The position numbers and the translations under genes are program-made. The notes under the pieces are model-generated. The model saw nothing but the letters and a program-made list of their open reading frames with translations. It made no database searches and was not told the DNA's origin. Positions 9,475-48,850 of a DNA stretch of 64,000 nt are shown one piece after another (the stretch's first letter is position 1; every line of letters begins with the position of its first letter). This DNA is from a bacterium (lineage in GTDB: Bacteria; Patescibacteriota; Minisyncoccia; Phycocordibacterales; Zambryskibacteraceae), in assembly GCA_030649135.1 (NCBI GenBank), contig JAUSGI010000006.1:43534-107533 (forward strand), in the 5' to 3' direction.

Positions 9475-10209
9475 ATGATTTCGTCTATTAACTGGAGCGT
9501 AGAAAATTTCTTTGGTCTTTTCGCCCTTACCATGGGCTTACTTTGTAGTATCTACTTTTTCTATGAATGGGTCAGGCATTACAGAAAACAAAATTACCTC
9601 CTCTTGTGGTCCATTAGCTTAGCGCTTTTTTATGTATTTCTGATTCCGTTCATTCAAATAAAATTTAGCGAGATAATTATTCTTACTGATTGGACAAATT
9701 TTTTCATTCCAACAGTTCCCTTTATATTTTTGGGCTGGGTACTTATCTATTGGACCATAACTCAAATAAAATCGTCCGTAACGGATAGAAAATCAGCCAG
9801 ACTTAAGGTATTTCTTTTGTTTTGGGTCCTTGCATCTTTTATTTTTTATTTTTTCAGATTTTCTTCAACAGAAAACGGGAAGTTATTGTCAATTATCGGT
9901 CTTTTAATTTTCTTTATCACTATACATGTTTTCATTCTCTCAGCGTTATGGAAGTTATTTAAAACGGAACGTTGGCAAAAAAACATGCGGGTAAATGCTG
10001 GCATTATTTTTATAGCGAGCGCAATTATTATTTCTATCGTAAGATATCTGTTTCTTCTTAACAGCCTTATGAGACTTCCCGGAGATTTTTGGTTTTTGTC
10101 GATAGCATCGTTTGATTTCGTATTTATTTTAAGAAGTGTGGTTGTTATTCTATTAACTATTGGCTTTGTCCTGATACATAAGCACTATCTTCTCAAGTCT
10201 AGGATATAA
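9475..10209 (+). CDS. hypothetical polytopic membrane protein
   Basis: 244 aa with about 7 hydrophobic helices. Upstream extended -10-like tggtgtatact. Confidence 0.5.
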   Translation: MISSINWSVENFFGLFALTMGLLCSIYFFYEWVRHYRKQNYLLLWSISLALFYVFLIPFIQIKFSEIIILTDWTNFFIPTVPFIFLGWVLIYWTITQIKSSVTDRKSARLKVFLLFWVLASFIFYFFRFSSTENGKLLSIIGLLIFFITIHVFILSALWKLFKTERWQKNMRVNAGIIFIASAIIISIVRYLFLLNSLMRLPGDFWFLSIASFDFVFILRSVVVILLTIGFVLIHKHYLLKSRI

Positions 10210-24300: not shown

Positions 24301-25018
24301 CAAGCTCCTTCAAAAGTTTCCCGAGGTCAAGACCTTTTAAAATATCGTAAATTGCTTCTGCCCCAATACCCGCCTCAAAAATAGTCGGATATTTAATGGA
24401 CGAGCGGTGATACTCGATTTCATTGAGCACTTGCCCGGGTACCAGAGACTCAATATCACGCCGGGTGCTAAGCGCCAGTTCCTTGAGCGCGAGTTTGCTT
24501 TTATCATCCTTTAGGGACTTGGTTTTAGCTTTAAATTCCGATTCTAAATCCTTGAGCACACGAGCCTTTTCCGATTCCGAAACACTAGTGACAATATAGC
24601 CGGCAAAGTAAATAACCTTTTCAAGTTCCGAGACAGGAATACCCATTACCAAAGAAATTCGCGATGGCACGTTTTTTAAAAACCAGATATGGGCTACCGG
24701 GGTGGCAAGCTCTATATGACCCATGCGATCGCGCCGCACAATAGAACGCGTGATTTCCACGCCGCACTTCTCGCAAACAATACCTTTGTATCGAATACCG
24801 CGGTATTTGCCGCAATAACACTCGAAATCCTTATCGGGCCCAAAAATCTTTTCGTCGAAGAGGCCGTTTCTCTCGCTCCTTTGCGTGCGGTAGTTAATAG
24901 TTTCCGGTTTGGTAACTTCGCCATGCGACCACTCCTTGATGCATTCCGGAGATGCCAGCCTAATGCTTATCGCATTAAATTGTTCCGCGTCGTTCACTTT
25001 TATTTTATAATTATGCAT
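21362..25018 (-). CDS. rpoC: DNA-directed RNA polymerase beta' subunit
   Basis: 1218 aa; catalytic NADFDGDQMAVHVP motif; zinc-binding Cys clusters at the N-terminus. Confidence 0.95.
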   Translation of the reverse strand: MHNYKIKVNDAEQFNAISIRLASPECIKEWSHGEVTKPETINYRTQRSERNGLFDEKIFGPDKDFECYCGKYRGIRYKGIVCEKCGVEITRSIVRRDRMGHIELATPVAHIWFLKNVPSRISLVMGIPVSELEKVIYFAGYIVTSVSESEKARVLKDLESEFKAKTKSLKDDKSKLALKELALSTRRDIESLVPGQVLNEIEYHRSSIKYPTIFEAGIGAEAIYDILKGLDLGKLLKELAIELEHAPSTEIVRLNKRISTVQWMINSGNRPEWMFLVRIPVIPPAIRPMVPLDGGRYATSDVNDLYRRVINRNNRLKKLKEINAPDVILRNEKRILQEAVDALIDNTIRHSSVSGNQSQRRPLKSLSDNLKGKRGLFRQNLLGKRVDYSGRSVIVVGPELKLHQCGLPKHMALELFKPFIISELLKRELSFNIPGARRLIEDAIPEVWAILEEVIRGKYVLLNRAPTLHRLGIQAFQPILIEGNAIQLHPLVCTAFNADFDGDQMAVHVPLSEEAQAEARLIMAADKNILKPGNGEPVVSAKLLDIVLGTYWVTRTLVGEKGEGRYYSSPNSAVTAYEFGAVSLRAKISILPTNTERYKQFEGKVFETSVGRLLFNGILPKDYPFLNHEMSRKKMSELVDDLIERYGIDNLPPIMDKIKDFGFRYATISGVTWGLGDVKIPPGKKVIIDKGRAAVSEVVGQYREGLLSEHERITKSVEIWQGIKAEVEKLIPGTLGINDSVYDMTYSEARGSLGNLNQMAGMKGIIASISGESLEFPILSCYKEGLTPLEYFITTHGSRKGLTDTALNTAKAGYLTRRLFDVAQDEIVTEEDCGTKDGTFIHKKTASGIEIPLSKKIKGRFLASDLSDGAGVLLFKRGHLITKSDAETVDKTSIESINVRSPLACKSIHGVCIKCYGVDLGNNKPVELGEAVGTVAAQAIGEPGTQLTMRTFHAGGIASAGGDITAGLPRVEEIFEKRKPKSPAVISHLDGMVTEVKVLGYDKLIVVTPDAGETKTKKLDNEYTVQASRTLLVKVGQNVKKGDVITDGSVDLDELFRYAGREKTENYVIHEVSKLYELQGAAVSHKHIELIVRQMFARRKIKDAGDTHLTRGDIVEVSELTEINNRMKERGLEEAVADAVVMGITEVSLSRSSFLSAASFQHTPRVLIQAAIRGAKDNLVGLKENVIIGRLIPAGTSFKGGFKEKLICEAMLTQSKKG

Positions 25019-28000
25019 TATTTTGAGGATTATCCGGTTTCTTCTTTAACTCCACATCAAGTGCCAGGCCGCGAAGGTTATTTAAAAGCACATTAAACGA
25101 GGCCGGCAGATGCGGTTCCGGAATCTGCTCTCCCTTAACTATTGCGTCAAAAGCCGCGCTGCGACCTAAAATGTCGTCAGACTTGATAGTCAGCATCTCG
25201 CGGAGAGTATAGCTTGCTCCGTGGCCGAGAAGCGCCCAGACTTCCATCTCCCCGAAACGCTGGCCACCATTCTGCGCTTTACCTCCCAGAGGCTGTTGAG
25301 TGATGAGGGAATACGGACCGATGGAACGCATATGTATTTTGTCTTCGACCATGTGGTGAAGTTTAAGAATATACATGTAGCCGATAGCAATCTCTTGATT
25401 GAACGACTCGCCGGTGCGACCGTCGAAAAGTTTAACTTTGCCGGATTCTTTAAAGTTTGCCTTAACGAGTTCCTCCTTAATCTCATCCTCGGTCGCACCG
25501 GCGAAGGGCGGTACAATCGCTTGATAGTTAAGGGTATGCGCCGCAAGGCCAAGATGCATCTCCAAAATCTGCCCGAGATTCATACGGGAAGGCACTCCGA
25601 GAGGGGTCAGAATCACATCGATAGGAGTACCATCGGCCATATAAGGCATATCTTCAACCGGTAGAATTCTGGAGATAACACCTTTATTGCCGTGGCGACC
25701 AGCCAGTTTGTCGCCTACCGAGACGTTTCTCAATTGCGCCACTTGAATATGAATTTGTTTCAGAATCCCCGAATCGAGCTTGTCCCCTTTCTCGCGGGTA
25801 AAGACTTGTACCGATATCACCCGGCCCCGCTTGCCTCCTTCCATGCGCTTGGAAGTATCTTTGACATCGCGGGCTTTCTCACCGAAAAGAGAACGGAGCA
25901 GACGTTCTTCCGGAGTCAGTTGGGACTCGCCCTTGGGAGTAATTTTACCTACCAAAATATCGCCGGAACGAACTTCGGCTCCAACTCTGATGATGCCATC
26001 TTCGGCCAAGTTTTTGAGCTTGGATTCTCCAACATTCGGGATATCGCAAGTGGTCATCTCCGGCCCCAATTTAGTATCTCTGACATTTACAGTAAACTCC
26101 TCGATATGAATAGAGGTAAATTTGCTTTTCTCAACCAGGCGCTCGGATATAATGATGGCATCTTCGTAATTAGCTCCGGACCATGACATGAATGCCACCA
26201 AAACATTCTGCCCAATGGACATCTGCCCATTGGATGAAGAAGACGTGTCGGCCAAAACGGACCCTTTCTTCACCTTCTGCCCCAACTCGACTGAAGGTCT
26301 TTGGTGAAAAGTGGTAAAACCATTGGTCATGGAGAAATTTACCAAAGGAAACTTGTGGCTATTCCCCTTGTTGTCTTTTACCACCACCAACTTGCCATCC
26401 ACATAAGACACTACGCCATCTACGTTTGAGAAAACAATACGGCCGGTATCACGAATCGCTATTTCCTCGATACCGGTGGCCACCAATGGCACCTCCGGGA
26501 CAATGCAGGGTGTTGCCTGCTTCTGCATATTTGAACCCATGAGCGCGCGATTGGCATCATCGTGATTGAGAAACGGAATCATCGAGGTTGCAATCGAGAA
26601 GGCCTGGTTGGTCGCCACGTCCATAAAGTCAACATCATCGCGAGAACGGGTCTGAGGAGTGCCTTTGACGCGCACTTCCACCATATCGCTCACTATTTTA
26701 TCCGCCTCGATGGGCGTAGCTGCATGGGCAATAATCGAGTTTTCTTCCTCTAGGGCATTGAGATATTTAATTTCTCCGGTAATCTTGCCCGCCGAGACTA
26801 CTGCATAGGGAGTCTCAATCATACCGAACTCGTTGATGCGGGCGTAAGCGGCTAAACGCAGGATGAGACCAATGTTTGGACCCTCCGGAGTCTGAATGGG
26901 GCAAAGGCGACCATAGTGCGACGGATGAACATCTCGTACTTCGTAACCGGCGCGAGCACGATTGAGACCACCCGGACCAAGAGCCGAAACGGTACGGAGA
27001 TGTTCGAGTTCTTCAAGTGCATTGGTCTGTTGCATGAACTGCGAAAGTTGGTTGGTGGTGAAAAACTCTTTCATCCTGGCCTGGAGTGGTTTGGGGGAGA
27101 TGAATTGCACGGGCAAGGTGACGTCGGTATCGATGGTAGACATCCGATTCTGAATATTGCGTTTAATCTGGGCCATACCGACACGAATCTTCTGTTGGAA
27201 AAGTTCTCCCACGAGACGCACTCTTCGGGAACCCAAGTGGTCGATGTCATCTTCCTTCACACCCGGGGTGACATTGAGATAAATAATATGCGAGATGATA
27301 GATACCATGTCAGAAAGGGAGAGCGTGCGGCGTTCAATCTCTTTGGCGGTTTCTTTGATACCGAAACGGTTATTGAATCGAAAACGACCAACGCGAGAAA
27401 GGTCATAACGCTCCTTGTCGAAGATGGAGCGGACGAACTCACGGGCATTTTCCGCTGCTGCCAAGTCACCATCGCGCAAACGTTTGTGGATTTCTATGGC
27501 GGCCTCGTCGATAGTGGTTGTGTGGTCCTTGGCCAAAGTCTTCTCAAGATGATGCTTGGCGCCGGCCACGCCTTCAAAGAGAGCTGCAATCTTGTCGTTT
27601 GAGGTCACACCGAAAGCGCGTAGAAGAATAGTAATGGGAAATTTTCTCTTGCGGTCAATACGAACATAGATGGTGCCGTCCAAGTCGGTTTCCAGCTCAA
27701 TCCAAGCGCCGCGACTTGGGATAATTTTGGCACCGAAAGTTTTTTTACCTTTCAACTCTTGAGCTGTAAAAGAAACTCCGGTTGAACGAGCAAGCTGTGG
27801 CACCACTACACGTTCAATACCGGAGATGATGAAGGTGCCGTGCGTTGTCATGAGCGGAAAATCCGCCATGAAAATTTCTTGCTCCTTCTCGGTACCCATA
27901 ATCAGATTCTTGAGCCGTACTCGCACTTTCAAAGGTGCCTCGTAAGAGAGCTTTCTATCCTTGGCTATGTACTCGTCAAATTTCGGCTCTGCCAATTCAA

Positions 28001-28229
28001 AACTAACAAAGTCCAGCTGAAATTTTTTCTCGGAAAAATCTTTAATGGATGAGAATTCTTCGAAAACTTCTTTGAGACCTTTTTCAATCAACCACTTGAA
28101 TGACTCCACCTGCGAGACTACCAGATTCGGTGTCTCGGCTAAGGGTTTCCTAAATCGACCGAAATATTTTTTCGGTCGTACGGTTGGATTGATTAAGTTG
28201 GCAGATTTTCCCGATGGGGGTGTATCCAT
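25011..28229 (-). CDS. rpoB: DNA-directed RNA polymerase beta subunit
   Basis: 1072 aa; conserved beta-subunit blocks (PKKYFGRFRKP N-terminus, GEMEVWALLGHGA, GGQRFGEME). Overlaps rpoC by 8 nt. Confidence 0.95.
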   Translation of the reverse strand: MDTPPSGKSANLINPTVRPKKYFGRFRKPLAETPNLVVSQVESFKWLIEKGLKEVFEEFSSIKDFSEKKFQLDFVSFELAEPKFDEYIAKDRKLSYEAPLKVRVRLKNLIMGTEKEQEIFMADFPLMTTHGTFIISGIERVVVPQLARSTGVSFTAQELKGKKTFGAKIIPSRGAWIELETDLDGTIYVRIDRKRKFPITILLRAFGVTSNDKIAALFEGVAGAKHHLEKTLAKDHTTTIDEAAIEIHKRLRDGDLAAAENAREFVRSIFDKERYDLSRVGRFRFNNRFGIKETAKEIERRTLSLSDMVSIISHIIYLNVTPGVKEDDIDHLGSRRVRLVGELFQQKIRVGMAQIKRNIQNRMSTIDTDVTLPVQFISPKPLQARMKEFFTTNQLSQFMQQTNALEELEHLRTVSALGPGGLNRARAGYEVRDVHPSHYGRLCPIQTPEGPNIGLILRLAAYARINEFGMIETPYAVVSAGKITGEIKYLNALEEENSIIAHAATPIEADKIVSDMVEVRVKGTPQTRSRDDVDFMDVATNQAFSIATSMIPFLNHDDANRALMGSNMQKQATPCIVPEVPLVATGIEEIAIRDTGRIVFSNVDGVVSYVDGKLVVVKDNKGNSHKFPLVNFSMTNGFTTFHQRPSVELGQKVKKGSVLADTSSSSNGQMSIGQNVLVAFMSWSGANYEDAIIISERLVEKSKFTSIHIEEFTVNVRDTKLGPEMTTCDIPNVGESKLKNLAEDGIIRVGAEVRSGDILVGKITPKGESQLTPEERLLRSLFGEKARDVKDTSKRMEGGKRGRVISVQVFTREKGDKLDSGILKQIHIQVAQLRNVSVGDKLAGRHGNKGVISRILPVEDMPYMADGTPIDVILTPLGVPSRMNLGQILEMHLGLAAHTLNYQAIVPPFAGATEDEIKEELVKANFKESGKVKLFDGRTGESFNQEIAIGYMYILKLHHMVEDKIHMRSIGPYSLITQQPLGGKAQNGGQRFGEMEVWALLGHGASYTLREMLTIKSDDILGRSAAFDAIVKGEQIPEPHLPASFNVLLNNLRGLALDVELKKKPDNPQNNA

Positions 28230-28235
28230 AAAGTA

Positions 28236-28270
28236 AAAAAATTCAAAGCACGCCGTGACTATCCGTGCTT
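28236..28270 (-). terminator. hairpin plus U-tract between trmD and rpoB (terminator or attenuator)
   Basis: aagcacg / cgtgctt stem. On the minus strand it is followed by gaattttttt, which sits immediately 5' of the rpoB ATG at 28229. Confidence 0.45.
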
Positions 28271-28331
28271 ACCAAAAAATGATTAATCTATACTGAAACT
28301 CTTTCTACTGGCCGTAACTCAATCGTTCGGG

Positions 28332-29006
28332 CTATCTTACTCCAGTACCCTGTTTCCTGTCAAGCCCCCGTCTACCTTTTTTCCACACATCTATCTTGGC
28401 ACGGTGGCCGGAGAGAAGAACCTTGGGCACACGATATGATTTACCTTTGTATTTGAAAACTTCTGGACGTGTATAGACTTCGCTAGATGATATGCGCCTC
28501 TCCTCAACAGAATCAAAATTGCCCAAGACGCCTGAGACCTGGCGACTCATAACATCTACAATAACCATCGCCGGCAGTTCTCCTCCCGTCAGTATAAAAG
28601 GTCCAACTGATATTTCATCCATCTTGAAAATTTTCTTCACCCGAGCATCAATACCTTCATAGCGCCCACATACAATAATCACATTTTTATACTTCTTAGC
28701 TACTTTGGCTGCGTAAGTATTAGTAAATTGTGTGCCACTCGGGCTCAAAAATATTATTTTAGGCTTACCTCCAGCTTTGGCGACGGCTGAAGCAATAGCT
28801 TTCACCACCGGCTCTGCTTGGATAACCATTCCTGGGCCGCCGGCATATGGAGGCCTGTCTATTCTCTTGTTTTTATCCTTAACAAAATCCCGCGGGTTGT
28901 AAAAAAAAACTTTAATTTTTTTATCTTCTATGGCGCGCTTCAAAATCGACTCGCCTAAATACGAGTCAAATGCTTTAGGAAAAAGGGTGATGATGTGGAA
29001 ATGCAT
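28332..29006 (-). CDS. trmD: tRNA (guanine37-N1)-methyltransferase TrmD
   Basis: MHFHIITLFPKAFDSYL N-terminus; SPOUT-class TrmD motifs; 224 aa. Confidence 0.9.
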   Translation of the reverse strand: MHFHIITLFPKAFDSYLGESILKRAIEDKKIKVFFYNPRDFVKDKNKRIDRPPYAGGPGMVIQAEPVVKAIASAVAKAGGKPKIIFLSPSGTQFTNTYAAKVAKKYKNVIIVCGRYEGIDARVKKIFKMDEISVGPFILTGGELPAMVIVDVMSRQVSGVLGNFDSVEERRISSSEVYTRPEVFKYKGKSYRVPKVLLSGHRAKIDVWKKGRRGLDRKQGTGVR

Positions 29007-29037
29007 GAGTTAGGTTCTAGGGACTTGGGACTAGGTA
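29007..29037. repeat. left imperfect inverted repeat flanking the two-gene cassette
   Basis: gttaggttctagggacttgggactagg matches the reverse complement of 30340..30370 (gctaggttctagtggctagggactag) at about 24/27 positions. Confidence 0.35.
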
Positions 29038-29403
29038 CTAGCTTTTAAGATCTAGTTTCTTTACTAGACCCATGGTCATCTTAGAGACTTCAGCAAGAAG
29101 CCCGTTGATTTCAATATACTTCTGTTCAGGAAGAAAAGAAAGCTCCTTAGCAATCTCAATCTGAGTTTCCAATTCTGATGCCGAACCTAAAGCAATGCTG
29201 AGAAAATGCAGAAAATCCTTGGTCGTATGTCTACTTCGACCTTCTGCTATATTCGAAGGGATGGAAACGGCGGAACGGCGTATTGGAGAAGTAATCCCAT
29301 AAATCTCTGATTTGGGAAAATTTTCAGTTACCTCATATACGGCCTTGCAGAGTTGAATTCCTTTCTGCCAAACTGTTAAATCTTTATGAGAATAAATTGG
29401 CAT
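29038..29403 (-). CDS. four-helix-bundle protein of the 23S rRNA intervening-sequence / DGR Avd-like family
   Basis: Hallmark SNIAEGRSRHTTKDFLHFLSIALGSASELETQIEIA. 121 aa. Confidence 0.8.
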   Translation of the reverse strand: MPIYSHKDLTVWQKGIQLCKAVYEVTENFPKSEIYGITSPIRRSAVSIPSNIAEGRSRHTTKDFLHFLSIALGSASELETQIEIAKELSFLPEQKYIEINGLLAEVSKMTMGLVKKLDLKS

Positions 29404-29407
29404 TTGG

Positions 29408-30337
29408 TTAAGCTAGATTTTCCGGTCTTTTAACCTTCACTCTCTGTTGACCGAAAAAAGGACTATAACTTGTTATCTCTTCTGATATAGAAAATCCCAG
29501 AGTTTTTACTATTTTTTCTATCTCATTAAGCGAATCGGCACTAGCGCTTATCTTCGCAGCTCTATCAAGCAACTGTAAATCAAGCTCAGGAAAATCATTC
29601 TCTGCTTTATCCGCAATGCCCCAGTAGTCCCAGGGTAAAGCTTCCCACTTATATAGGGCGGAGATATCACGAACTACGCTTCCTCGTACAAACCACTGAC
29701 CTTTAATATCAATACTTGAGACCCCAAACTTATCTGGATCAGTTCCATGACGAATCATTTTCCACGCTTCCCCCGCAACAATAAATTTATCATATGGGAT
29801 ATTTAGTGGGTTAAGAGTGATCTCATATTTCTTGACTACCGTTTCATCAAGATTAGCATCCACTAGAATCCATTTAGCCTGTTCACTGTCCCAATATTCA
29901 CAAAGCCAATGATCATCATAGAAGTCTTTTTTAATTCCAAAATATTGGTCAAAACCACATCTCAAACGTGCTGGAATATTTTTATGGCGAAGCATTGAAC
30001 AGAGCACTATCGCATAATCTCGGCAACTTCCTACAAAGCGATTACCTGGGTCCCTAATCTGATCGAGAGGTCGATTGTCTCTTGCCATAAGTCGTCCAAG
30101 AATAGTCTCAACATACCGCGTATCAACATCTTTCTGCTTTTCCTCATTTAATGTTTCGCCATAAAGTTCTAGGAAATCTTTATCAATAACAAGATCTTGA
30201 ACTATTTTCACAAGTTCTGGTATAGCATCCGGCAAAACAGCAAAAAGTTTGCCAAACTTACCTGGTTTAGTAACCAAGCTTTGGCTTAAATATATTTCTG
30301 GTATTTCCATGTTCTTCGAAATCAGAACCTGTCTCAA
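29408..30337 (-). CDS. transglutaminase-like cysteine-protease-fold protein
   Basis: Candidate Cys-His-Asp triad in the expected spacing: GSCRDYAIVLCSML ... DDHWLCEYW ... WILVDAN. 309 aa. Confidence 0.55.
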   Translation of the reverse strand: MRQVLISKNMEIPEIYLSQSLVTKPGKFGKLFAVLPDAIPELVKIVQDLVIDKDFLELYGETLNEEKQKDVDTRYVETILGRLMARDNRPLDQIRDPGNRFVGSCRDYAIVLCSMLRHKNIPARLRCGFDQYFGIKKDFYDDHWLCEYWDSEQAKWILVDANLDETVVKKYEITLNPLNIPYDKFIVAGEAWKMIRHGTDPDKFGVSSIDIKGQWFVRGSVVRDISALYKWEALPWDYWGIADKAENDFPELDLQLLDRAAKISASADSLNEIEKIVKTLGFSISEEITSYSPFFGQQRVKVKRPENLA

Positions 30338-30370
30338 GCTGGCTAGTCCCTAGCCACTAGAACCTAGCCA
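30338..30370. repeat. right imperfect inverted repeat flanking the two-gene cassette
   Basis: See the left repeat (29007..29037); the shared core is (a/c)taggttctag. Confidence 0.35.
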
Positions 30371-30721
30371 CTAGTCTAGATTCAAATCCTCCATAGCCTC
30401 ATCAAGGGTCTTGGAGGTATTAGGAGCAGGAGGAGCAATTGGTCCTCGCCTATCTTGCCAAGACTGTCCGCCCATACCGGCAGGTTCATTAATCTTGAGG
30501 TTGATGCGGGCATTATTTTTCATACCTACTACGCGTAGCAAAATCCTGATGGCTTTGGCGGTATTACCGGCTCGACCTATCACCTTACCCATATCGTCAG
30601 GATGAACGTCTAGGGACATGAGCACACCCATTTCATCGACAGTCCTTTTAATCTTAATGTCATCCGGATGTGACACTAATGCTTTCACAACATATTCAAG
30701 AAATTGAACATCATCAATCAT
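30371..30721 (-). CDS. KH-domain RNA-binding protein (KhpA/YlqC-like)
   Basis: KVIGRAGNTAKAIR (GxxG KH motif). Position between rpsP and trmD, as in the conserved rpsP-ylqC-(rimM)-trmD-rplS operon. Confidence 0.75.
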   Translation of the reverse strand: MIDDVQFLEYVVKALVSHPDDIKIKRTVDEMGVLMSLDVHPDDMGKVIGRAGNTAKAIRILLRVVGMKNNARINLKINEPAGMGGQSWQDRRGPIAPPAPNTSKTLDEAMEDLNLD

Positions 30722-30741
30722 GCTCTTTAGTTAAGGAATAA

Positions 30742-31104
30742 TCAGACGGCCTCTTCTGTAATCACAGGCTCTATTATATCATCCGCAACAGGTTTAACTT
30801 CTTCAACCACGGGTTTCTTGGTCTCGGGAGCTTTCTTGGACTTAGCCGAAACATTAATCTTTTTGGCACTGATGATTCTGTGTTTGACCAGAAGGTTGTG
30901 AATGGTGGGAGTTGGGCTAGCACCTTGAGAAAGCCAGTATTTAATGCGTTCAGTTTCCAGAGAATCCCTAGATTGACGAGGGTCATAAGAACCAAGAATT
31001 TCTTTAAAGCGACCACTCTTGGTGCTGTTCTTCGAGTCGGTCAAAACAAGTCGAAAGCTTGGTTCGTGCGTTCTCCCCACCCTCTGCAATCTGATTTTAA
31101 GCAT
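30742..31104 (-). CDS. rpsP: 30S ribosomal protein S16
   Basis: MLKIRLQRVGRTHEPSFRLVLTDS is the canonical S16 N-terminus. C-terminal Lys/Ala-rich extension. Confidence 0.9.
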   Translation of the reverse strand: MLKIRLQRVGRTHEPSFRLVLTDSKNSTKSGRFKEILGSYDPRQSRDSLETERIKYWLSQGASPTPTIHNLLVKHRIISAKKINVSAKSKKAPETKKPVVEEVKPVADDIIEPVITEEAV

Positions 31105-31140: not shown

Positions 31141-31147
31141 TTAAAAG

Positions 31148-31173
31148 GAGGGGCGTCAGCTGACGCCCCTCCA
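31148..31173 (-). terminator. perfect 26-nt palindrome terminator after the GC-rich inserted gene
   Basis: ggaggggcgtcagctgacgcccctcc equals its own reverse complement. On the minus strand it is followed by ttttaaattg. Confidence 0.55.
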
Positions 31174-31197: not shown

Positions 31198-31689
31198 CTA
31201 CGCAGAGACGACAGATAAGTCGCAGACACAGAGGAACACATCGTCCTCGTCCAGCTCGCGGTCGAAGCTTGCCAGATGGAAGCCGAAGCCTCCGCGCTCG
31301 AGAACGACGAGGTTGGGCACCTCGTACTTCAAGAGACGTTCCGGCTCGTCGAGGGAGGCATACCACCGGCCCTTACAGAGACTCTCCCTCCATTCTTCAA
31401 AGACGAGGGAGAGACCGGCAGATCCAATGAACACATTTCTTGCTTGCTTGCGACAGAACGCCACCCGCTCTGCGTACGTCGTCTTGCCTGGCATTACTTG
31501 CCCGAATACTCGAAACCACAGCTTGTCACCAGGCCTAGGAATGCGGGTGGGACGGAAATGCCGGTCAGACCTGGCTCTATCGTCGTAAACGAAGTAGCCA
31601 GCATTTTGCTTGCGGAGTGATGCTGGACGATAGTTCTCCGACACCGTGGTCACACCGAAATCATCCAGTAGGTCAAACTTAGTCATCAT
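31198..31689 (-). CDS. hypothetical protein encoded in a GC-rich insertion
   Basis: 163 aa ORF with distinctly higher GC than the flanks, Arg/Asp-rich, with its own terminator. Confidence 0.45.
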   Translation of the reverse strand: MMTKFDLLDDFGVTTVSENYRPASLRKQNAGYFVYDDRARSDRHFRPTRIPRPGDKLWFRVFGQVMPGKTTYAERVAFCRKQARNVFIGSAGLSLVFEEWRESLCKGRWYASLDEPERLLKYEVPNLVVLERGGFGFHLASFDRELDEDDVFLCVCDLSVVSA

Positions 31690-36776: not shown

Positions 36777-36826
36777 TTACTGCTCTACTTCACCCCGCCT
36801 AGCCCGGGCGGGGCAAGCTGAGCTAA
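36777..36826. repeat. about 50 bp element immediately 5' of tRNA-Thr(CGU), copy A
   Basis: ttactgctctacttcaccccgcctagcccgggcggggcaagctgagcta shares about 85% identity with 36940..36990 and contains the hairpin ccccgcc/ggcgggg. Confidence 0.6.
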
Positions 36827-36863
36827 GGTGGCACTACTTCGCCTAGGCTACGAAGTGCGAAGC

Positions 36864-36939
36864 TGGAGCCAGAGGGGAGAATCGGACTCCCGACCTCTTT
36901 CTTACCATGAAAGCGTTCTACCACTGAACTACTCTGGCT
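36864..36939 (-). tRNA. tRNA-Thr (anticodon GGU), CCA encoded
   Basis: Manual cloverleaf: GCCAGAG/CTCTGGC acceptor, D-loop AGTGGTA, anticodon loop ATGGTAA, T-stem GGGAG/CTCCC, T-loop TCCGATT. Confidence 0.8.
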
Positions 36940-36990
36940 TATTGTGCTCTACTTCACCCCACCTAAGTCAGGCGGGGCAAGCTGAGCTAT
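36940..36990. repeat. about 50 bp element immediately 5' of tRNA-Thr(GGU), copy B
   Basis: ttattgtgctctacttcaccccacctaagtcaggcggggcaagctgagcta. Confidence 0.6.
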
Positions 36991-37067
36991 CTTGGCAAAC
37001 AAAAGAATGGCTCTAATCTTATAGAGTTTAAAGCCCTTTTGCAAAATAGCGTCCGGATGACTGGTCG

Positions 37068-47888: not shown

Positions 47889-48329
47889 TTACGGGCAGGA
47901 AATCGCTCCAAGAGCAAGATTGGCCGGAATCAGTTTGGAAGCACCGGTACTGTCTACACACCATGCTTCTCCAGTAGTGGATGTTAATAGTAACGCCGAC
48001 ACCGCGTAGGCAGTACCATCTGTGTGGCATGAGAGATCAGCACCAGTTGGGTAGTTAGCAGGGTCGGTATATTGAACCATACTAGAATCAGCATCCGTGA
48101 AGAAAGCATCGGAACATACATCTGCGACAGCAGCGCCATAATTACTATTAGAATCGAAGTAGACTTCGGCGGCAGCTCGAAGGCCGGAAAGTTGCGCCTT
48201 AACCTTAGCATCATTGCCCTTGCCTCGCGCAGTATTGAGGGATGCCAGCACCACCGATGAGAGAATGCCGATAATAGCGATAACTACCAGAAGTTCGATG
48301 AGGGTGAAGCCTCTTTCTTTTCTAACCAT
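47889..48329 (-). CDS. pilA: type IV major pilin (PilA-like), copy 1
   Basis: [47 protein letters not shown]; two C-terminal Cys. Confidence 0.75.
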   Translation of the reverse strand: MVRKERGFTLIELLVVIAIIGILSSVVLASLNTARGKGNDAKVKAQLSGLRAAAEVYFDSNSNYGAAVADVCSDAFFTDADSSMVQYTDPANYPTGADLSCHTDGTAYAVSALLLTSTTGEAWCVDSTGASKLIPANLALGAISCP

Positions 48330-48352
48330 ATATTCTTTAGGAAATTTAACTA

Positions 48353-48784
48353 TTAACAGCTAGTGGTAGTAATGGCTGTAGTCCTAGTTTTCGAACTACC
48401 GAGACTATCAACACACCAAGAATTTGTGCCTCCAACTCCTGGCAAGAGGGCAGAAACGGCATAAGCCGAAACGGATGACCGGCAAGTGAGAGTAGCATTT
48501 GTCGGGTAATTTCCTTGAGTGGTGTACTGCACCATGCCGGAAAGTGTGTCATTAAACATGCCCGCACCACAGCCTGGGTTGGAAGCCGGGCCGTAATTTC
48601 CGACAGTGTCGAAATAAATTTCTGCCGATGCTCGCAGGCCGGAAAGTTGAGCCTTAATCTTGGCATCATTGCCCTTACCTCGCGCGGTATTGAGGGATGC
48701 CAGCACCACCGAAGAGAGAATGCCGATAATAGCGATAACCACCAGAAGCTCGATGAGGGTGAAACCCTTTGTTCTTTTGTTCAT
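48353..48784 (-). CDS. pilA: type IV major pilin (PilA-like), copy 2 (tandem paralog)
   Basis: [47 protein letters not shown]. The N-terminal roughly 50 aa are nearly identical to copy 1; the C-terminal half has diverged. Confidence 0.75.
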
Positions 48785-48850
48785 AATAACTTTAACAATT
48801 TTATCTATAACTTATAAATCACCTATTTTGAGTGATAAGCCCATTATACC

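Follow-up and report, generated by a model that had tools for sequence, protein, structure and literature searches.

What occupies the junction between the KH-domain gene and trmD in the rpsP operon of a patescibacterial genome is the question raised by the 64,000-nt stretch of DNA analyzed here (the window; contig JAUSGI010000006.1). Positions 29007-30370 form a block of 1,364 nt that fills the gap from the KH stop codon to the trmD start codon exactly. The block holds two genes, one for a transglutaminase-like protein and one for a four-helix-bundle (4HB) protein of the PF05635/TIGR02436 family, which is known from intervening sequences (IVSs) of 23S rRNA. It ends in two arms that are inverted arrays of tandem heptamers, and comparable arms enclose a 4HB gene at the same junction in relatives and, with other heptamers, at other sites in other phyla. 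We favor, with moderate confidence, the reading that the block is an IVS-type element residing in an mRNA operon, with arms that would pair in the transcript and serve as a substrate of RNase III.

Heptamer arms and the 4HB gene

The two arms contain an inverted repeat of 24 nt (29011-29034 versus 30343-30366) that is complementary at 21 of its 24 positions, and 100 dinucleotide shuffles of the window yielded no match as good. When a short artificial loop links them, the two arms form a near-continuous stem of ~30 bp (-40.9 kcal/mol, z = -5.4), and the capacity to form an enclosing stem of at least ~20 bp is likewise present in L007, L017, and L019 (L-numbers denote the loci compared with the window). 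On the minus strand, the left arm reads TAGTGGC TAGGTTC TAGTGGC TAGGGAC TAGCCAG, i.e., (TAGNNNN)5, with the KH stop codon as its first TAG. The right arm reads TAGTACC TAGTCCC AAGTCCC TAGAACC TAACTC, followed by the trmD ATG, and its first TAG is the stop codon of the 4HB gene. The tetramer CTAG is depleted in the window (97 observed versus 246 expected from composition) and yet occurs eight times in the two 35-nt arms. A scan of the window for lag-7 periodicity flagged the right arm and a T-rich low-complexity stretch at 9827-9861, with the left arm just under the threshold; ten shuffles gave nothing.

The arms are inverted arrays of tandem heptamers and not classical transposon terminal repeats; transposase and target-site duplication are missing, as is a second copy within the window. 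The only genes recognized by Pfam in the block are the transglutaminase-like and 4HB genes, no target-site duplication is visible at the junctions of the arms with KH and trmD, and neither further copies of the arms nor paralogues are present in the 64-kb window. The features of the region, listed in the order of transcription, are as follows.

31147-31172, minus strand: strong intrinsic terminator upstream of rpsP (11-bp stem with 9 GC pairs, T tail)
30742-31104, minus strand: rpsP (Pfam)
30371-30721, minus strand: KH-domain gene, KhpA-type, the upstream host cistron (Pfam)
30339-30373, minus strand: left (5') arm, five tandem heptamers, inverted-repeat core at 30343-30366
30311-30338, minus strand: leader of the transglutaminase-like gene, 28 nt, CTTGAGACAGGTTCTGATTTCGAAGAAC; left junction of the cargo insertion, after ...GGGACTAGC
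29408-30310, minus strand: gene for a transglutaminase-fold cysteine enzyme, 300 amino acids (PF01841), lineage-specific cargo
29404-29407, minus strand: spacer CCAA, 4 nt, from the transglutaminase stop codon to the 4HB start codon
29038-29403, minus strand: 4HB gene, 121 amino acids, 23S rRNA IVS protein family (PF05635, E value of 1.8e-39)
29007-29040, minus strand: right (3') arm, heptamer array ending at the trmD ATG, inverted-repeat core at 29011-29034
28332-29006, minus strand: trmD, the downstream host cistron (Pfam)
25011-28229, minus strand: rpoB, downstream of trmD

The five genes from rpsP to trmD were identified by a Pfam profile search. The rpsP-KH-[element]-trmD transcription unit is delimited at its start by the terminator at 31147-31172; within the element no terminator is predicted, and promoter-like matches stay at background level. 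There are no rRNA genes in the window, and the element sits between KH and trmD rather than in a helix of 23S or 16S rRNA. A preliminary description of this DNA had the block fill the space between KH and trmD precisely, in the orientation of the operon, and both its extent and its orientation stand. The imperfect inverted repeats that it reported are real, although they measure 24 nt with 21 matches instead of about 27 bp with 24, and their build from tandem heptamers had escaped it. Its assignment of the small gene to the 23S rRNA IVS/Avd family, and its statement that the block is not a diversity-generating retroelement (DGR), are borne out by the results given next.

The 4HB protein matches PF05635 (23S_rRNA_IVP) with an E value of 1.8e-39 and TIGR02436 with 127.4 bits (cut-off of 24), within a large family for which the search returned at least 7,969 of 8,000 scored candidates. 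Against the equivalog model of Avd, the accessory protein of DGRs (NF033474), it scores 34.7 bits where the cut-off is 80, and against PF22296 (bAvd-like) 38.2 bits where the cut-off is 40 (E value of 2.2e-9). A DGR identity was rejected on this subthreshold Avd score together with the missing template/variable repeat pair in the window and the missing reverse transcriptase in the neighborhood of syntenic relatives: no RVT domains occur among the Pfam-annotated neighbors in the syntenic loci, and none was seen in the whole window, which was covered by motif search only. The sole long direct repeat of the window, 225 nt at 48.1 to 48.8 kb, was considered as a DGR pair and rejected, as it belongs to pilin-like paralogues and shows no adenine-specific mismatches; these are two tandem genes on the minus strand (48129-48808) with type IV pilin-like N termini, 80% identical over the 225 nt. 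Profile searches detected no nuclease or recombinase domain in the 121-amino-acid 4HB protein, the PADLOC defense-system models matched neither it nor the transglutaminase-like protein, and phage records gave one weak match only. Ratios of nonsynonymous to synonymous substitution (dN/dS) against orthologues are 0.03 to 0.07, with dS of 0.8 to 2.8 and thus near saturation, and they indicate that the 4HB gene is under strong purifying selection.

Relatives at the KH-trmD junction

The nearest named relatives of the window are Candidatus Zambryskibacteria. All six 4HB proteins that are 73 to 91% identical to that of the window and whose context was checked are encoded at the same KH-trmD junction, with homologous arms. 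A scan of metagenome contigs carrying trmD comprised 60 loci. The 4HB gene stands alone at the junction in L007 to L010, as a 436-nt unit, and in L162 and L165. It is preceded by a 190-nt stretch in L011 to L016 (an insert of 625 nt in L011) and by a gene for an FtsJ-like methyltransferase in L017 (an insert of 1014 nt). In L011, this stretch matches the 3' end of ftsJ as found in L017 and is therefore a remnant of ftsJ. Comparison of these loci indicates that the slot that separates the left arm from the 4HB gene has received differing cargo, namely, FtsJ in L017, its remnant in L011, none in L007, and a foreign-looking transglutaminase-fold gene in the window.

The junction is empty in eight further loci. 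The gap between KH and trmD is -1 or 0 nt in L100, L102, L104, L106, L111, and L112, 1 nt in L113, and 3 nt in L105, and the proteins of these loci are 78 to 91% (KH) and 74 to 84% (TrmD) identical to those of the window. Since the KH stop abuts the trmD start in these relatives, the 4HB unit is an insertion at a tight junction, which is probably translationally coupled. In a neighbor-joining tree built from KH, trmD, and 520 amino acids of rpoB, the element-bearing and the empty loci form one clade with 82% bootstrap support. The core of the element reached the junction in an ancestral member of the Patescibacteria subclade concerned and was passed down from there; it is an old and largely vertically inherited resident.

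The arms have been kept along with the core. The left arm shows 2 or 3 differences in 29 nt among the window, L007, and L011, even though dS of the adjoining 4HB gene is at least 0.8, and L007 carries a complementary double change, in which a CTAG of the left arm has become TCAG and a CTAG of the right arm CTGA. The arms are conserved and change in concert. Locus L013 was at first taken for an element-bearing twin of the empty L112 and was then discarded as a mosaic, with coverage of 1.9x, of sequence resembling L011 and L112. Its identity to L011 is 97 to 99% from rpsP and KH across the element to the first ~140 nt of trmD, after which it is 99.4% identical to L112; the locus represents a recombinant or else a chimeric assembly.

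Other lineages present other versions of the arrangement at this junction. In L148, from a more distant lineage (trmD 57% identical), positions 1019-1161 hold a 143-nt version without an open reading frame (ORF), whose CTAG-type arms are complementary at 30 of 34 positions around 70 nt that contain only a terminator-like hairpin. The 143 nt fold as one long hairpin (-60.8 kcal/mol, z = -9.3), and the 11-mer TAGGTTCTAGT is common to L148 and the left arm of the window. A heptamer inverted repeat complementary at 21 of 24 positions surrounds an ORF of 113 amino acids with no known identity in L142 (1566-2112), and a weaker one (15 of 18) surrounds a DapB-like ORF in L134 (1485-2489); L127 has a true dapB gene at the junction and a heptamer array on the trmD side only. 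In L110 (GTAGTAG GAAGTAG GTAGTAA ...), L131 (ATAGTAA ATAGTAG ...), and L115 (units of roughly 8 nt), the KH-trmD gap is taken up by a solo array of 26 to 30 nt that has no inverted counterpart; such arrays could be footprints or precursors of elements. The KH-trmD junction is a site occupied repeatedly by elements of this kind.

The cargo of the window is the transglutaminase-like gene. Its longest ORF starts at a TTG at 30337, and alignment with homologues points to the ATG at 30310 as the likeliest start, which gives 300 amino acids. The product matches PF01841 (Transglut_core) with 31.8 bits (cut-off of 23), has no NCBIfam match, and contains a Cys105-His143-Asp160 triad that is invariant in its homologues. 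An AlphaFold model (pLDDT 83.7, pTM 0.87) has as its closest fold in the PDB 3ISR, a putative cysteine protease of Cytophaga, followed by transglutaminase cores. The homologues, at most 60% identical, lie in unrelated contexts without a 4HB gene and without arms, and none of the relatives' loci compared carries the transglutaminase gene, which is specific to this genome.

Several features identify the transglutaminase gene as a later cargo. Its GC content at third codon positions (GC3) is 0.29, compared with 0.34 for the 4HB gene and 0.41 to 0.53 for the neighbors. The protein carries five additional C-terminal residues (PENLA) relative to its homologues, the cargo insert has the pentamer CTAGC at either end, and ahead of the 4HB start codon stands the sequence AAAATCTAGC, which the ftsJ remnant of L011 has at its end as well. 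The gene probably entered the slot that follows the left arm and precedes the 4HB gene, or took the place of ftsJ in it.

The arrangement in other phyla

The association of heptamer arrays with 4HB genes was surveyed in 80 loci, with one genome per species, which form a taxonomically broad sample among the matches listed rather than the closest ones. They come from Patescibacteria, Bacteroidota, Proteobacteria, Acidobacteriota, Firmicutes, Planctomycetota, Cyanobacteria, and other phyla. By eye, most of these loci show G/A-rich tandem repeats of ~7 nt upstream of the 4HB gene and their reverse complement downstream, with a repeat unit that differs by lineage. The best lag-7 periodicity in the upstream and downstream flanks is 0.64 and 0.62, compared with 0.41 and 0.40 at random positions and 0.45 and 0.45 around other ORFs; other lags show no comparable excess, apart from a small one at lag 8. 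The complementarity score between the two flanks reaches at least 12 in 57% of the 4HB loci, compared with 0% of random positions, 3% of other ORFs, and 1% of mismatched arm pairs. An array, an inverted repeat, or both accompany 79% of the 80 4HB genes and 13% of the other ORFs in the same loci, and the density of arrays is ~22-fold higher within 120 nt of a 4HB gene than in the rest of the same loci. Arms like those of the window, which has no second copy of its own, thus bound other 4HB genes.

The 4HB gene is co-oriented with both neighbors in 56 of the 70 loci that have two callable neighbors, the median gaps being 62 and 45 nt, and none of the 40 4HB loci checked overlaps an rRNA gene. 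L018 and L019 encode 4HB proteins that are 75% identical and have similar CTAG-type arms with 20 flank 7-mers in common, in different gene contexts, which indicates that arms and ORF travel together.

Several loci show additional arrangements near their 4HB genes. Back-to-back inverted heptamer arrays without an ORF occur at L047:760-885, L053:394-496, L095:1891-1971, and L064:1639-1752, and all four use the same heptamer as the neighboring 4HB element. Genes also lie between such arrays, one for a chemoreceptor-like protein of 601 amino acids in L047 and one for a CheY-like protein in L095. An identical 4HB protein (WP_010994075.1) is encoded on the plasmids gamma (L160:1504-1920) and alpha (L161) of Nostoc sp. 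PCC 7120, adjoining transposase genes. On pCC7120gamma the array CTTCTGC CTTCTGC CCTCTGC CCTCTGC follows the 4HB gene, and the upstream arm is not complementary to it, perhaps as a result of disruption by an ISL3 element. In L073, an ORF of 133 amino acids at 1149-1550, 1.4 kb from the 4HB gene, lies within a 29-nt inverted repeat that is not heptamer periodic; we take it to resemble a GxxExxY or PD-(D/E)xK-type protein, and it may stand for another small gene family bordered by inverted repeats.

Proposed pairing in the transcript and its alternatives

In the reading that we favor, the element, having no promoter or terminator of its own, would be transcribed together with rpsP, KH, and trmD, and its arms would pair in the operon transcript to form a stem of ~30 bp around the cargo and 4HB cistrons. 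RNase III would cut this stem, as it does in 23S rRNA IVSs, and cleavage would release an mRNA of the element, while the KH message would end, and the trmD message begin, in remnants of the stem. Such excision would make the insertion harmless to the expression of KH and trmD and hence tolerated in an essential operon. By analogy with Avd, a pentamer of the 4HB protein may bind the heptamer arrays.

Several observations weigh against this reading. No rnc gene was found in the 64 kb, by motif search only. Among the arm mismatches of 46 loci, G:U and A:C pairs are equally frequent (33:33), so that a signature of pairing in sense-strand RNA is missing and a process at the DNA level could maintain the complementarity. 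A plain stem leaves the 7-nt periodicity unexplained. In the nine CTAG-type elements, an element's own arms pair with -35.4 kcal/mol and arms from different elements with -31.2 kcal/mol (permutation P value of 0.02), an advantage that is weak because all nine have one motif. In the window, 1.3 kb and two translated ORFs separate the arms, whose pairing is kinetically harder than in the 436-nt form. Finally, the inner nodes of the neighbor-joining tree have 27 to 62% bootstrap support, at which one gain with losses is not separable from other histories; one gain followed by losses would be the simplest course, though not a proven one.

The main rival, which we consider somewhat unlikely, holds that the arms act as DNA. 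They would be inverted arrays of 7-bp sites, comparable to iterons or to the inverted repeat/direct repeat (IR/DR) ends of transposons, bound by the 4HB pentamer or by a host factor in order to move, copy, or maintain the cassette, and their complementarity would be a by-product of both ends fitting one recognition motif or of gene conversion between them. The strict tandem period of the heptamers, which the need for a stem leaves unexplained, and the equal numbers of G:U and A:C mismatches speak for this view. It also accommodates the ORF-less arrays (L047, L053, and L095, and L148 at this very junction), which resemble nonautonomous derivatives of mobile elements, the arms that accompany the ORF into different contexts in L018 and L019, and the unrelated heptamer types at the KH-trmD junction elsewhere (L142 and L134, and the solo arrays of L110 and L131). 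It is at odds, however, with a 121-amino-acid helical bundle devoid of nuclease and recombinase domains, with the missing target-site duplication and second copy in 64 kb, and with the context-checked 4HB relatives of at least 73% identity, which all sit at the same site and give no sign of recent movement. The sole experimental data on this architecture, moreover, concern RNA processing by RNase III (PMC4990558).

An improbable third view regards the arms as signals for translation or mRNA stability rather than as partners of each other, with TAG in successive frames stopping ribosomes, purine-rich units serving as ribosome-binding sites, and local hairpins guarding the mRNA ends. The left arm does carry TAG in all three frames and a local 14-nt palindrome, the stop codons of both KH and the 4HB gene fall within the arrays, upstream arms are somewhat purine-rich (mean of 0.60; 30 of 46 above 0.5), and L110, L131, and L115 each have a solo array that lacks a partner. 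Many arrays of other phyla, however, contain no stop codon (e.g., the GGGACAAG and CAGTGGA types), and the view gives no reason for the upstream and downstream arrays being reverse complements of each other in 57% of loci versus 1% of mismatched pairs. Very improbable is the preliminary description's own proposal, a single mobile cassette of transglutaminase and 4HB genes inserted as a unit with terminal inverted repeats: the block is indeed an insertion relative to relatives (KH abuts trmD with a gap of -1 or 0 in six loci, and nearly so in two), is bounded by repeats, is missing in several close relatives, and has a GC3 under that of its neighbors, but the same two genes do not recur together in the relatives, whose arms hold the 4HB gene alone or with FtsJ and never the transglutaminase gene, homologues of the latter occur elsewhere without arms or 4HB, and the transglutaminase ORF bears a junction scar in its C-terminal extension and flanking CTAGC.

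The reading of the block as an IVS-type element draws on comparison with known systems, of which the ORF-bearing IVSs of 23S rRNA are the closest. The IVS of Coxiella burnetii is 428 nt long, lies in helix 45 of 23S rRNA, and has terminal inverted repeats that form a 28-bp stem; upstream of its PF05635 ORF stand three heptamers in tandem (GACAGAT), the first of which is where RNase III cuts (PMC4990558). The elements of Coxiella and Leptospira share with the window a PF05635 ORF within a terminal-inverted-repeat stem of ~24 to 30 bp, and that of Coxiella also shares the tandem heptamers in the arm upstream of the ORF and a unit of ~430 nt (436 nt in L007, 428 nt in Coxiella). The L007-type unit fits the description of the Coxiella IVS in all but location, and the element of the window is an L007-type unit plus cargo. 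In contrast to the rRNA IVSs, it lies between cistrons of an mRNA operon rather than in helix 9, 25, or 45 and carries an additional cargo gene. Furthermore, the Coxiella ORF is seemingly decaying and unexpressed, whereas the 4HB ORF of the window shows the substitution pattern of strong purifying selection.

The second point of comparison is Avd, which binds RNA stem-loops in DGRs as a pentamer on structured RNA beside a long-range duplex (bioRxiv 10.1101/2023.10.23.563531). It is therefore plausible that the 4HB protein binds the arrays, whether the arms act as RNA or as DNA. Avd belongs to the same four-helix-bundle superfamily (PF22296), whereas the window protein falls under the equivalog cut-off and has neither reverse transcriptase nor template/variable pair in view. 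Integron gene cassettes resemble the arrangement in that co-oriented genes lacking promoters follow one another, separated by imperfect palindromic sites, and that a single fixed slot takes variable cargo, but no integrase was seen here and, by eye only, the sites are heptamer arrays and not attC sites with R/L boxes and GTTRRRY cores.

The Correia/NEMIS elements of Neisseria are small intergenic elements with terminal inverted repeats that are cotranscribed with neighboring genes, and RNase III cuts their RNA hairpins and thereby alters the fate of the mRNA. This is the behavior proposed for the element of the window, and the 143-nt ORF-less form of L148 looks much like them. They differ in having no ORF or heptamer arrays, an unrelated sequence, and hundreds of near-identical copies, compared with a single copy in the 64 kb here. 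Tandem heptamers are also known from the short tandemly repeated repetitive (STRR) sequences of cyanobacteria. Together with the TAACTGA heptamers of Beggiatoaceae (PMC4679880), these share with our arrays the intergenic position of tandem 7-nt units near start codons, but both are described as direct repeats spread over the genome. The plasmid-borne 4HB gene of Nostoc PCC 7120 adjoins a heptamer array. The report on the TAACTGA repeats, however, makes no mention of IVSs, 4HB proteins, or paired inverted arrays around a gene (PMC4679880). PF05635 genes have been described inside cas operons (PMC3936711) and in rRNA insertions of candidate phyla radiation (CPR) bacteria (PMC11270868). No literature linking non-rRNA 4HB genes to heptamer or inverted repeats was found, within an incomplete coverage that leaves room for a prior description.

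A wider claim can be put forward tentatively: PF05635 4HB genes with inverted heptamer arrays may form a widespread and hitherto undescribed class of cassettes, of which the rRNA IVSs are the minority noticed first. Members of this class would occupy tight operon junctions in many phyla, accept cargo at a fixed slot, and give rise to ORF-less hairpin derivatives, and the 4HB pentamer would recognize the arrays, as RNA or DNA, for processing or copying. Given the role of the family as the reverse transcriptase cofactor Avd, such copying could be RNA mediated. The origin and function of rRNA IVSs and of their conserved ORF have been an open question since the early 1990s, and we know of no role for the PF05635 family outside DGRs. 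If ordinary operons indeed harbor the module, with purifying selection acting on it and cargo that varies, the IVSs would be one special case of a general element. This would explain 4HB genes scattered within conserved operons, cas operons included (PMC3936711), and would give annotators a simple DNA signature of the element. For the minimal genomes of Patescibacteria, the element shows that a passenger is tolerated even in the rpsP-trmD-rpoB core. The description that fits the element of the window best is that of an IVS-type 4HB element, a kind known from 23S rRNA, that has long resided in the operon, and the broader pattern, if undescribed, is the more interesting result.

The surroundings of the element show further features. 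The usual bacterial operon order is rpsP-rimM-trmD-rplS. In the window (25011-31104) and its relatives alike, the order is instead rpsP-KH-trmD-rpoB-rpoC, without rimM and without rplS after trmD. Between the release-factor gene and rpsP lies an ORF of 163 amino acids (31198-31689) that has no Pfam or NCBIfam match; its GC3 is 0.65 versus ~0.45 in the neighbors, its position is kept in relatives, and the strong terminator follows next to it. At 36781-36997, a direct repeat of 53 nt, 85% identical between its copies, adjoins each of two tRNA-Thr genes.

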